A stretch of DNA of 64,000 nt from Dictyostelium discoideum (taxonomy: Eukaryota): NCBI GenBank assembly GCA_000004695.1, contig CM000150.2:1376001-1440000 (forward strand), written 5' to 3'. The notes under the pieces were generated by a model, which saw only the letters and a program-made list of their open reading frames with translations, was not told the DNA's origin and searched no databases. Position numbers and translations under genes: made by a program. Of the stretch, positions 56,947-63,920 are shown one piece after another (the stretch's first letter is position 1; each line of letters begins with the position of its first letter).

Positions 56947-58094
56947 TTATTGACAAATTTTAATAAAACCATCATCAGTACCAGCTAATAAAACATGATG
57001 TAATGGAAAGAAAGATAAACTTAAAATATTTGATTGTTTTGGAGTATTTAATTTTAAGCCATCAACTCTAAATGTATTTTGATTACCACCACCACTAGTT
57101 AATTGATAAGGATCATCTAAAAGTGTCATTGAAGATAATTTATGACCAGAGGAAACTATGAGATCATTTTGATAGAGGGAAGCATTTGTAATGTTATCTT
57201 TAAAACCTTTCCACATTTTTGAAATGATTGGTGGTGATTGATGAAGGTCCCATTGAATTACAGATTTATCACCACAAGAGATAAGATAACGTGATCCTTG
57301 AGCAATTAGCTTATTGACAGGACTATCATGATGTGATTTCCATTGTTCCAAGATTGTACCGGTTCTAGTGTCCAATAGAGTGATCATACCAGATGAAGAA
57401 CCTGTAGCAACCCAAGTTGGAGTAGCACTAGCAATAAAAGAGGAAGAAGAGAATTGGTTAGAGTTTGAGCCTATTAAATGGTCATTAGAGGTGGCAATAC
57501 AACGTATAGCTTGACCAGTTTGATATGCCAATGACCATTCGTGAGTCAATGAACCCATGGAAAGGTCATAGAACGATAGGGTTGATTCACAAGTTGAAGC
57601 AATTAAATATTTAGAAGAGATTGGCTCAAAACATGAGAAACTACCAGTTGGCTCATAAAATACATTCACCTTAATTTTACTCTCTGGGTCCCAAACTTGA
57701 ATGGAGGTAATATCACAACTTGCCACTAACGAGGATACAAAATGTACTGTATGAGCTGTATGCATATGTTGATTATAGGTTGTTAATGATTTAGTTGAAT
57801 CTAAACTCCAAATTTTAACAAGATTATCTTTTGAACCACTTATAAATCTTTCCTCAGATGGTGATACAGCCAATGATTTAATAGATGCATTATGTTCTTT
57901 ATATTGTGCGACTATATTACCTTGTAATGTAAATGTTTTATCACAAATTAAATCATCATAATCTTGATAATCATCTAATAAATAAGTTGAACTAATTTTT
58001 TGATCTAAAGTTTCTTCAATTATATCATATAATCCATCGTCTGAAACATATGGTGGTATAAAATTTAAACTATTTGGATTTTCATTATTATTAT

Positions 58095-58144
<50 letters not shown>

Positions 58145-59410
58145 ATTGTTGAATTTGTAGTTTTAATATTATTTTCTTTTATATAAATTCTCATTATATG
58201 TTCAATTAAAGAATTATCAGAGATTTCAGCTCTCATAACTTCAAAACCAATGATTCTTGCTAATTTATAATAAAGATAATAAGTCATTTCAGGTGAATAA
58301 ATACTACGTAATTGTTTTGTAGTTTCAGAATCACCACCAATTTTAGCATAACTATTATCACCGCTATAATCATAGAGATCTGAATAATTTGAAAAGAATT
58401 GTTGAACATACTTTAATATATAATTTTTTGTATGATTTACACCGATTCTACCAGAGATTCTTAATAAAGTTTCAGCCAATGGTAATAGTAATGAAGTATT
58501 TGAAGGATTTAATAATAATGAAGCCAATTGAGTCGATTCTTTTAGCAATGATCTTAATACTAAACCAGGTTTAACCAATAGGATTAATTCTTGTAATAAT
58601 GATAACAAAGTACATGGTATCGATTCAGATCTTGATGCTTTTGAAGAATGTTTTTGAATTAGTATGAAAATGGAAGGGAAATAAAATTTGACAATAACAT
58701 TTTCACCAAGACTTGAAGCTATTGCAACCAATGGTTCATTTAAATGTTGAAGACGTGGTTTAGTTAATGCAACCAATAGTGGATACATCATATGTCTAAT
58801 TGTTAATGGTATACCTAGGACTTTGGATATCTTTATCAATGCAGTTGTCAACATTTCATGATTTGGGTTATCCTTTGGATTGGTTTTAACACTGTCCAAT
58901 AGGAATGGTAGTATATGATGAATGTAAACGTCCCTTCCAAATCTTGAAACTATCATATCGATCATTGGTATTTGAATTAAATGACATTGTAATAGATGAT
59001 CGTCATGTCTCTGATATAGGGCTATCAGACATGGTAGTAGATAGCTAGTTGATAAATGTATACCTAATCTCTGTGATAACGGATCCAATAAATCTATTAA
59101 TGCCGATACCATAGTTTTAGAATCATAGAATAGTTCTAAAATAAATGGTAGAATTAAATCAATAGATTCATTTGGTAATGATGTCACAATACCAATATTT
59201 GCCAAAGTAAATGTTAATCTCTCCTCTGGTGTATTTAATGAATGATAATGAACCAAGAAATGGTACATCTGTTTAAAATAATTTGGAAATAATGATGATG
59301 ATAATAATTCATTTACTTCACTTCTTTCCATTGGATTTGGTTGAATTAATTTATCAACAATCTCTTTAACATTATTTGGTAAATTTGAAGTTATCATAAA
59401 TGATCCATTC

Positions 59411-59456
<46 letters not shown>

Positions 59457-62783: not shown

Positions 62784-62815
<32 letters not shown>

Positions 62816-63629
62816 GATGTTTTTAAAGATCTTTCATATAACCTTGGTCTTTGTTGACTATTATTATCATTACTATTATTTATCCAATTCTTTTTAACAA
62901 CTTGAATTGAAATTTCATCACCATCATATGAAGATGCTTCGAAACTACCTTGTTTATATTTAATGGTTGTTCTTTTTCTTGGCATTGAATTTAAATCATT
63001 TAATGAAATTGATGTTGATAATGGAGTTGTTGTTGTTGACGTTGATGATGATGATGATGGTGACAATGGTGATGATGGTGCTGGTGGTGGTGCTTTTTCT
63101 CCAGTATTATCTTCATCTCCTTCACCACTATTATTATTATTTTCTTCAGAATTATTATTATTATTTTTATTTTTATTTAAATCATGATCGTTATGTTTAT
63201 TTGCATATTGTAATAATATTGAAGTTGATTTATCTTTAATTAAATCATCAATTATATTATTATTACTAATGTTTACAAATCCATTGCTACCTATTAAACT
63301 ACTATTATTATTACTAGTTTTATTAAAAATAAAATCTATTGATCCTTTGTGAGCCTAAATAATTGAAAAAAAAAAAAAAAAAAGAAAAAAAAGGAAAAAA
63401 AAGTTAATATAGATAAGAGTAAAATGAATATTGTAAAAAGTGGGTGTGTGTGTATGTGTATGTTTTGGGAGTATATTAAGATTATAAAAATACATACGGA
63501 TACAGTTGAAAGATTAAATGAAATTGAATTCTTTGAGTGAATATCTTCTTGATCAAGTGAGAGGAAACAAATGTTTAATTGTTTTTCAATCTCTTCTTTT
63601 ATCTCTTCTTTTGATACTGTTTGCCCCAT
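56947..63629 (-). CDS. WDR81 homolog: N-terminal kinase-like (pseudokinase, HGD) region, BEACH domain, long low-complexity linker, HEAT/ARM-like region and C-terminal WD40 repeats. Proposed structure is complement(join(56947..63354,63498..63629)), about 2179 aa.
   Basis: The track ORF (first 'M' is a TTG Leu) is open upstream to the acceptor TTTAG at 63355-63356. A 44-codon first exon begins MGQTVSKEEIKEEIEK.. (Gly2, a myristoylation-type start) and ends at a GTATGT donor at 63497. The BEACH signature is [36 protein letters not shown]...GWRDLTKTKYRLNKGDEQLDFQF. The following segment [68 protein letters not shown]...[22 protein letters not shown] matches human WDR81 ([123 protein letters not shown]), recalled from memory. 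A catalytic-loop-like HGDLQPSNIHL lies upstream of the BEACH domain, DMFALGCIIAELYQGYPLF lies downstream, and WD40 repeats are at the C-terminus (DNLVKIWSL, SIQVWD, SVIQWDL). Confidence 0.8.
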
Positions 63630-63920
63630 ATTGCTCACTGTTCTCTCTCTCTCCCACTCAAAAATATTCTCCCCTTTTTTTTTTTTATAACTCTTAATTT
63701 CCTTCTTCAAATTACCAACCTAATTTTTTTTTTTTTTTTGTTTTTTTTTTTTTCTTATTAAATGTTTAAATATATATTATTTGATATTATTATTATTCTA
63801 TTTGTTATAGTTCCCAAAAAAAAAATCTGAAAATAAAAAAAAATAAAAAAAAATAAAAAAAAAAAATAAAAAAAAATAAAAAAAAAAAAAAACTAAAAAT
63901 TAAAAAAAAATCTGAAAATG

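Follow-up and report, generated by a model that had tools for sequence, protein, structure and literature searches.

We analysed a window of 64,000 nt of Dictyostelium discoideum DNA (assembly GCA_000004695.1, contig CM000150.2, positions 1,376,001 to 1,440,000 of the forward strand; all coordinates below refer to the window) and focused on one very long open reading frame (ORF) on the minus strand of positions 56947-63710. The locus is the already annotated two-exon gene lvsG, a member of the WDR81/GFS12 family. Its product LvsG contains a kinase-like domain which is interrupted by a BEACH domain and almost certainly catalytically dead. We hold the reading as a whole with high confidence: lvsG belongs to the WDR81/GFS12/SORF-2 family and encodes an almost certainly dead, BEACH-split kinase with a putative role as membrane scaffold.

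The exact product of 2179 aa is absent from a collection of 15 billion proteins and no D. discoideum entry is found among the homologue matches. The nearest collection entries are P0001, a partial model from another dictyostelid (51-60% identity), and P0004 from Polysphondylium violaceum. The identity was therefore set via the supplement of the Dictyostelium kinome (Goldberg et al. 2006, PMC1420674). In Table S2 of this paper DDB0231499 "LvsG" is placed in the group Other/Other-Unique, rated "kmc" (kinase motif-containing) and predicted to be inactive. The HRD motif is given as HGDLQPSN and the DFG motif as "DFT", with the remark "lacks K72". The protein in this table begins MGQTVSKEEIKEEIEKQLNICFLSLDQEDIHSKNSISFNLSTVSAHKGSIDFIFNKTS... 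and is identical to our spliced product through the exon junction, over the ~400 residues shown. The main text of the same paper counts LvsG among seven "borderline members of the kinome", and the word "BEACH" occurs there 0 times (PMC1420674).

For LvsG, the short first exon and the call as an HGD pseudokinase have been on record since 2006 (PMC1420674), and for WDR81 a Vps15-like pseudokinase whose activation loop carries BEACH was already described in 2024 (PMC11554844). Two minor additions are made here, namely the assignment of GFS as the DFG-equivalent and the broad conservation of a myristoylation consensus in the family. Among the source names of the homologues, "Putative inactive serine/threonine-protein kinase lvsG" is attached to plant and Balamuthia proteins. 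This suggests that the name has spread into other annotations.

Domain layout and the interrupted kinase-like domain

Homologues were retrieved with LvsG from which the low-complexity tracts had been deleted, which was the productive query. The unmasked N-terminal 776 aa returned 3 matches only, swamped by low-complexity words, and the C-terminal kinase-plus-HEAT part returned no match. With the masked query 241 homologues were found at E < 1e-5, their names including "protein GFS12", "WD repeat-containing protein 81" and "inactive serine/threonine-protein kinase lvsG". For homologues carrying one of the names GFS12, WDR81 or lvsG, coverage of the masked query reaches up to 80-86%. Pfam profiles matching the full LvsG are Beach (E 4.9e-30), WD40 together with several beta-propeller families (E 1e-10 to 6e-17), and Pkinase in two stretches (41.7 bits with a gathering score of 31.7). 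The better Pkinase stretch aligns LvsG 1306-1400 with profile positions 175-263. With a BEACH domain, an interrupted kinase, an alpha-solenoid plus WD40 and full-length homology, LvsG fits the atypical BEACH proteins known as WDR81 in animals and fungi, GFS12 in plants and SORF-2 in C. elegans.

All parts of LvsG are encoded on the minus strand. The N-terminal part of the pseudokinase covers residues ~174-470 (62077..62967). It consists of a putative degenerate N-lobe followed by beta5, alphaD, alphaE, the catalytic loop and beta7-beta8, as judged by Pkinase positions 96-134, a PDK1 alignment and an AlphaFold2 (AF2) model. Within this part HGD (residues 434-436, 62179..62187) is the HRD-equivalent of the catalytic loop according to alignments with PDK1 and Vps15, the family columns and Table S2 of PMC1420674. 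GFS (residues 454-456, 62119..62127) is the DFG-equivalent according to the same two alignments and the family columns, with the metal-binding Asp lost. The BEACH domain (residues ~471-775, 61162..62076) contains two low-complexity loops and is inserted in the activation segment. It is followed, still within the activation segment, by a Q/N/S/T-rich low-complexity linker of ~514 aa (residues 776-1289, 59620..61161), which is delimited by an entropy mask and has no Pfam match. The C-terminal part of the pseudokinase (residues 1290-1412, 59251..59619) corresponds to subdomains IX-XI (DMFALGCIIAELY, ...NPMERS...) and includes a Vps15-like FPNYF and a poly-N loop. It is assigned by Pkinase positions 175-263, the Vps15 alignment and AF2, and DMFALGC lies here at residues 1310-1316. 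A HEAT-repeat alpha-solenoid (residues ~1413-1790, 58117..59250) and a C-terminal WD40 beta-propeller (residues ~1850-2179, 56950..57939; Pfam WD40/beta-propeller) complete the protein.

In a separate Pfam scan the pre-BEACH piece alone matches Pkinase positions 96-134 with 24.0 bits and the post-linker piece alone positions 175-262 with 27.2 bits. Once BEACH, linker and low complexity are excised and the two pieces are joined, Pkinase is matched over positions 96-262 as one collinear stretch with 47.4 bits (E 2.2e-12). Moreover, a phmmer search of the joined sequence against the PDB gives a continuous alignment to PDK1 (E 9e-10). It spans alphaD/alphaE and places HGD on HRD, LEGFSF on ITDFGT and SNDMFALGCII on SSDLWALGCII. 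From the PDK1 and Vps15 alignments together with the collinear Pkinase match we conclude that the activation segment houses BEACH (~471-775) and the linker (776-1289), which separate subdomain VII from subdomains VIII/IX.

The structure was predicted by AF2 for a construct of 809 residues, in which LvsG 165-780 and 1240-1600 are combined after removal of low-complexity tracts, using an alignment of 74 relatives (A1). The model reaches a mean predicted local distance difference test (pLDDT) score of 79.4 and a predicted template modelling (pTM) score of 0.80. Construct residues 1-137 represent the putative N-lobe. They show a short strand at ISIQV and a helix at KEFIKSVLQSFSTYISSL (putative alphaC), with pLDDT < 50. 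The N-lobe region is thinly aligned and divergent, 12 usable sequences covering it. Residues 138-212, comprising beta5, alphaD, alphaE, the catalytic loop and beta7-beta8, are modelled with pLDDT > 90. BEACH (~221-470) is mostly > 85, with two loops dipping to ~50-67. AlphaF to alphaI (528-612) are again mostly > 90 and the HEAT solenoid (612-809) is > 90. Foldseek of the model against the PDB ranks the PH-BEACH structures 1mi1 and 1t77 first (E ~4e-9), followed by kinases which are matched only over the 79-column pre-BEACH half. In a structure comparison of the model the number of aligned residues is larger than for either half alone, hence the two halves are predicted to form one kinase C-lobe.

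Taken together these data support the view that the HGD and DMFALGC segments, on either side of BEACH, are the halves of a single kinase-like domain. The first-pass annotation, made from the letters of the window, had taken the HGD segment and the post-BEACH segment for kinase parts split around BEACH, and Pfam, the PDK1 alignment and AF2 agree with it. The Pkinase profile it had suggested as a check scores above the gathering threshold. Of the bilobal fold it had also suggested to look for, a confident C-lobe built from both halves was obtained and the N-lobe was not, given its low pLDDT.

Catalytic residues and pseudokinase status

Conservation was counted in 73-74 aligned family members (alignment A1). 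Several C-lobe positions are kept almost throughout. His and Gly of the catalytic loop are each present in 72/73 members, the Trp after subdomain VIb in 74/74, the subdomain IX Asp in 71/71 and the subdomain XI Arg in 64 members. The catalytic Asp position is occupied by Asp in 9/73 and by Asn (HGN) in 34/73, LvsG with Asp436 being among the Asp-keepers, like Vps15. The catalytic-loop Asn is found in 43/73 members and in LvsG as Asn441 (HGDLQPSN). At the DFG-Asp position Asp occurs in 0/74. The putative beta3 Lys position holds Gln in LvsG (ISIQVV, in the low-confidence region with pLDDT < 50) and in dictyostelids, and Lys is not among the six commonest residues of this column in the family. 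A glycine-rich loop is not recognisable in LvsG, where the N-lobe is poorly modelled. As residues of the C-lobe structure are kept and the ATP and metal ligands are lost, this pattern is the signature of a scaffold pseudokinase.

The DFG-equivalent of LvsG is, by alignment, GFS 454-456 upstream of BEACH. Gly454 aligns to the DFG Asp, with GFS facing ITDFGT of PDK1 (LEGFSF in LvsG) and LTDFA of Vps15. In contrast, the "DFT" listed for LvsG in 2006 (PMC1420674) lies in the BEACH motif PWVIDFTT (PWVxDF), at ~residues 509-511 or window ~61954-61962 on the minus strand. P, W, D and F of this motif are invariant BEACH columns in the family (alignment A1).

As has been proposed for Vps15, LvsG could instead be an active atypical kinase, one that binds ATP and metal in a non-canonical way and uses the BEACH insert as a regulatory activation-loop module. 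Asp436 and Asn441 are indeed retained, the HGD loop recurs in Vps15, the closest solved relative, and some divergent families (BUB, SCY1) stay active despite their sequence (PMC1420674). However, the beta3 Lys is replaced by Gln in dictyostelids and missing family-wide, and the DFG Asp is missing from every aligned member. The low share of members with a catalytic Asp speaks against selection for catalysis, and neither the missing glycine-rich loop nor the poorly modelled N-lobe helps the case. The kinome paper predicts LvsG to be inactive as well (PMC1420674). We thus regard an active LvsG as unlikely and the kinase-like domain as almost certainly dead, judging by its residues. HGD in place of HRD had led the first-pass annotation to suggest a degenerate kinase-like scaffold, a view with which the column counts and the 2006 call of inactivity are in accordance.

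The first exon and the N-terminal myristoylation consensus

The gene model was derived by reading and translating the DNA. In the mechanical ORF list the exon-2 ORF starts at a TTG at 63066. The frame is open further upstream to 63354, where it abuts a pyrimidine-rich tract ending TTATTTAG. Exon 1 (63498..63629, minus strand) has 132 nt or 44 codons, MGQTVSKEEIKEEIEKQLNICFLSLDQEDIHSKNSISFNLSTVS, and is assigned by the DNA reading, the published N-terminus of DDB0231499 and the alignment with P0004. It starts with the ATG at 63629-63627 and opens ATG GGG CAA ACA GTA TCA AAA, that is MGQTVSK. Upstream of 63629 the DNA contains no in-frame ATG before a stop. The donor GTATGT follows directly after exon 1 from 63497. 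Intron 1 (63355..63497, minus strand) is 143 nt long, GTATGT...TTATTTAG, with 80% A+T and phase 0, as assigned by the published protein and an ungapped orthologue alignment across the junction. Its acceptor AG at 63356-63355 makes 63354 the first base of exon 2, and a stop is found in the exon-2 frame just upstream of the acceptor. Exon 2 (56947..63354, minus strand) is a single open frame of 6408 nt, coding for residues 45-2179 and closed by one terminal stop, the TAA at 56949-56947. Both exons join in phase to the 2179-aa protein, which is rich in poly-N, poly-Q and poly-T tracts in a window of 20.6% G+C.

P0004, a BEACH-domain protein of 2016 aa from P. violaceum, is the closest full-length relative and starts MGQHLSKEDVKLEIEQYLRVCFLSMDQED...FNLSTASAQKESVE. 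It aligns with LvsG free of gaps across the exon junction (FNLSTVS|AHKGSID against FNLSTASAQKESVE), with 26/45 aligned exon-1 columns identical and E 8e-30 over the first 200 aa. The first-pass annotation had extended the TTG-started ORF to an acceptor at 63355 and had added a 132-nt exon at 63498-63629 with MGQTVSK and an in-phase GTATGT donor. Coordinates and phases proved right, and the exon agrees with both DDB0231499 and P0004 across the junction.

If exon 1 lay outside the main transcript, translation would begin within exon 2 at Met167 and yield a non-myristoylated protein. The eukprot model P0001 from another dictyostelid, which begins MLHPSS... and is devoid of exon 1, would fit such a start; it is, however, a fragment of 629 aa. 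The exon-2 frame runs through 122 Met-free codons before its first Met, residue 167 of the spliced protein, and these open codons reach back to a canonical acceptor. Exon 1 is moreover present in the curated LvsG model, and in the P. violaceum orthologue both the 44-residue block and its continuation past the junction recur. Together with the occurrence of the block MG[QN]xxS-x-[ED]-L-K in 17 family members of distant lineages, this makes a start in exon 2 very improbable.

Two observations concern the surroundings of lvsG. Upstream of the gene, window 63760-64000 contains long poly(A)/poly(T) runs and resembles ordinary A+T-rich intergenic or promoter DNA. Immediately downstream lies the gene of a WD40 protein.

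MGQTVSK at the N-terminus conforms to the N-myristoylation pattern of PROSITE, G-{EDRKHPFYW}-x(2)-[STAGCN]-{P}. The same pattern is found at the N-terminus of 17/253 fetched relatives, or 16/166 when only Met-starting models of at least 1300 aa are counted. All 17 align as one block, MG[QN]xxS-x-[ED]-L-K-x-x-I-x-x-x-L. Besides Dictyostelium, carriers of the consensus include P. violaceum and Balamuthia mandrillaris in Amoebozoa; Gilbertella, Umbelopsis, Spinellus, Blakeslea and Circinella in Mucoromycota; the choanoflagellate Salpingoeca urceolata; Naegleria fowleri (Discoba); and, in Archaeplastida, the lycophyte Diphasiastrum complanatum, Prasinococcus capsulatus and Rhodelphis marinus. Relatives with consensus N-termini include P0004, P0007, P0010, P0014, P0024, P0027, P0042, P0066, P0171, P0184, P0185, P0218 and P0233. 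The MGQTVSK start, read as a myristoylation context by the first-pass annotation, therefore satisfies the PROSITE pattern, and the consensus is conserved in orthologues.

Other members keep the downstream block without Gly2, namely Glomeromycota with MVSI(N/D)KL..EEL, seed plants with M..MCFECLQRRI and animal-like sequences with ME..L..EL.IP. In seed-plant GFS12 (e.g. P0159, P0213, P0222, P0227) a conserved Cys-x-x-Cys block within residues 1-20, M..MCFECLQRRI.SDFSD, replaces MGxxxS; metal binding or palmitoylation are examples of roles it may have. About 1-2% of eukaryotic proteins carry an N-myristoylation signal. In view of this general frequency and the spread over several supergroups, the motif looks ancestral and repeatedly lost, which suggests that the family started out with a myristoylation motif and lost it several times. 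Going by titles and abstracts, a literature search for WDR81 combined with myristoylation returned only unrelated co-mentions.

As to the rest of the window, 4972-7140 and 32319-34331, both on the minus strand and ~25 kb apart, each code for a STAS-domain sulfate permease of the SulP family (E 6e-89 and 1e-96). The two ORFs are probably paralogues. The remaining large ORFs at 15482-17242 (+), 18864-21458 (+), 44436-46262 (+), 47638-50439 (+) and 52913-54685 (-) are ordinary eukaryotic genes, coding for an unconventional myosin TH1 tail, a double-AAA ATPase, RNA polymerase III RPC82/POLR3C, a PIF1-like helicase and the WD40 protein. Since several of them begin at TTG or resemble exon fragments, unlisted 5' exons are probable there, too.

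Relation to Vps15, GFS12 and WDR81

A profile of 15 BEACH-excised kinase cores, reaching from beta4 to just past alphaI (alignment A2), was searched against all PDB sequences. The top match is yeast Vps15 (5dfz_B/5kc2_B) with E 2.5e-27 and 98.9 bits. Next come five distinct human PIK3R4 sequences (~81 bits), and CDK2 and other kinases rank from 78.4 bits downwards. Hence the top seven distinct PDB sequences are all Vps15 or PIK3R4. Only the family profile ranks Vps15 at the top: in the single-sequence phmmer search against the PDB no Vps15 is found among the best 60 of 1138 matches, these 60 being PDK1, DYRK2 and MAP kinases. The resemblance of the HGD loop to Vps15, which the first-pass annotation had pointed out, is well reflected in this ranking among solved structures.

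Several points weigh against the full reading of LvsG. The support for the 5' exon and its junction, which we consider confirmed, consists of the curated protein and the orthologue alignment. N-myristoylation of LvsG is a prediction from sequence. The poorly scored N-lobe restricts confidence in the kinase to the C-lobe, and the AF2 model was made on a construct with low complexity deleted. A HEAT profile search gave no match to the Vps15 solenoid. Finally, no functional study specific to LvsG was found in a literature search for lvsG, where a single paper names it. That the kinase-like motifs are a chance resemblance in an unrelated helical scaffold flanking BEACH, with no real kinase fold, would go along with the N-lobe scores, with either half alone staying under the Pfam gathering score (24.0 and 27.2 bits) and with the "borderline", "kinase motif-containing" rating of 2006 (PMC1420674), yet we find it scarcely credible.

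Reading LvsG as a BEACH-split pseudokinase, we propose that it would act as a membrane-tethered scaffold on endosomal/lysosomal membranes. The myristoyl group would anchor the protein in the membrane, and the pseudokinase, BEACH, HEAT and WD40 modules could act as platforms for binding. By analogy with WDR81-WDR91 and SORF-1-SORF-2, LvsG might restrain the class III phosphoinositide 3-kinase (PI3K) complex (Vps34-Vps15-Beclin 1). Such a restraint could in turn control the levels of phosphatidylinositol 3-phosphate (PtdIns3P) and endosome maturation. Binding to Beclin 1 and a lowering of PtdIns3P are known for WDR81/WDR91 and SORF-1/2, and of the partners in the Vps34 complex only Beclin 1 has been reported to bind WDR81 (PMC4738380).

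A more speculative idea, which we put forward tentatively and as rather doubtful, is that the WDR81/GFS12/LvsG family is an ancient Vps15 paralogue dating from before the radiation of the last eukaryotic common ancestor. BEACH would have entered its activation loop, and the N-myristoyl membrane anchor of Vps15 would at first have been retained. Were this correct, family members would be lipid-anchored mimics of Vps15, able to compete with it or replace it on Beclin/Vps34 assemblies, and there would be a structural rationale for the restraint of PtdIns3P synthesis by WDR81. Mutations in WDR81 cause human cerebellar ataxia (CAMRQ2) and microcephaly. Dictyostelium offers a tractable system to ask whether membrane anchoring and Vps15 mimicry underlie PtdIns3P control of the WDR81 type. 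Apart from this, the locus demonstrates that raw sequence can be enough to recover a eukaryotic gene model correctly, together with a cryptic split domain.

Vps15 itself is N-myristoylated. Its order of parts is common with LvsG: myristoylation signal, kinase-like domain, HEAT solenoid and WD40. The kinase alignment shares HGD, the conserved Trp (SWNWCILTDF vs NQMWLGLEGF) and DIFSLGCVIAEIF, and the Vps15 segment D-I-F-S-L-G-C-V-I-A-E lies within the alignment to the family kinase profile. A post-kinase FP-x-YF motif is common to both as well, FFPDYFY in Vps15 and LFPNYFK in LvsG. However, the Vps15 kinase is uninterrupted and follows directly after the N-terminus, whereas ~170 residues precede the kinase of LvsG and residues 471-1289 interrupt it. 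Owing to this late and interrupted kinase LvsG is not a Vps15 orthologue. The comparison is supported by the affinity of the kinase domains and the common order of parts, and stops short of whole-chain homology.

Plant GFS12 acts in vacuolar protein trafficking. GFS12 proteins are the best named full-length homologues of LvsG (E ~1e-110, 30-33% identity over ~80% of the masked query) and have the Pfam set Pkinase, Beach and WD40 in common with it. They mostly carry HGN where LvsG has HGD.

In animals and fungi the counterpart is WDR81. Its homology to LvsG is clear, the best LvsG homologues including fungal entries named "WD repeat-containing protein 81". LvsG differs from WDR81 and SORF-2 by ~680 residues of low-complexity inserts, and its N-terminal myristoylation consensus sets it apart from animal-like homologues, which start ME... 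or MD... without Gly2. Apart from that, the layout of human WDR81 in an AlphaFold3 model is as in LvsG: a pseudokinase with BEACH in the activation loop, an alpha-solenoid and WD40 (Pankiv et al. 2024, PMC11554844). Human WDR81 was described in that study as Vps15-like, with BEACH as an insertion within its pseudokinase's activation loop.

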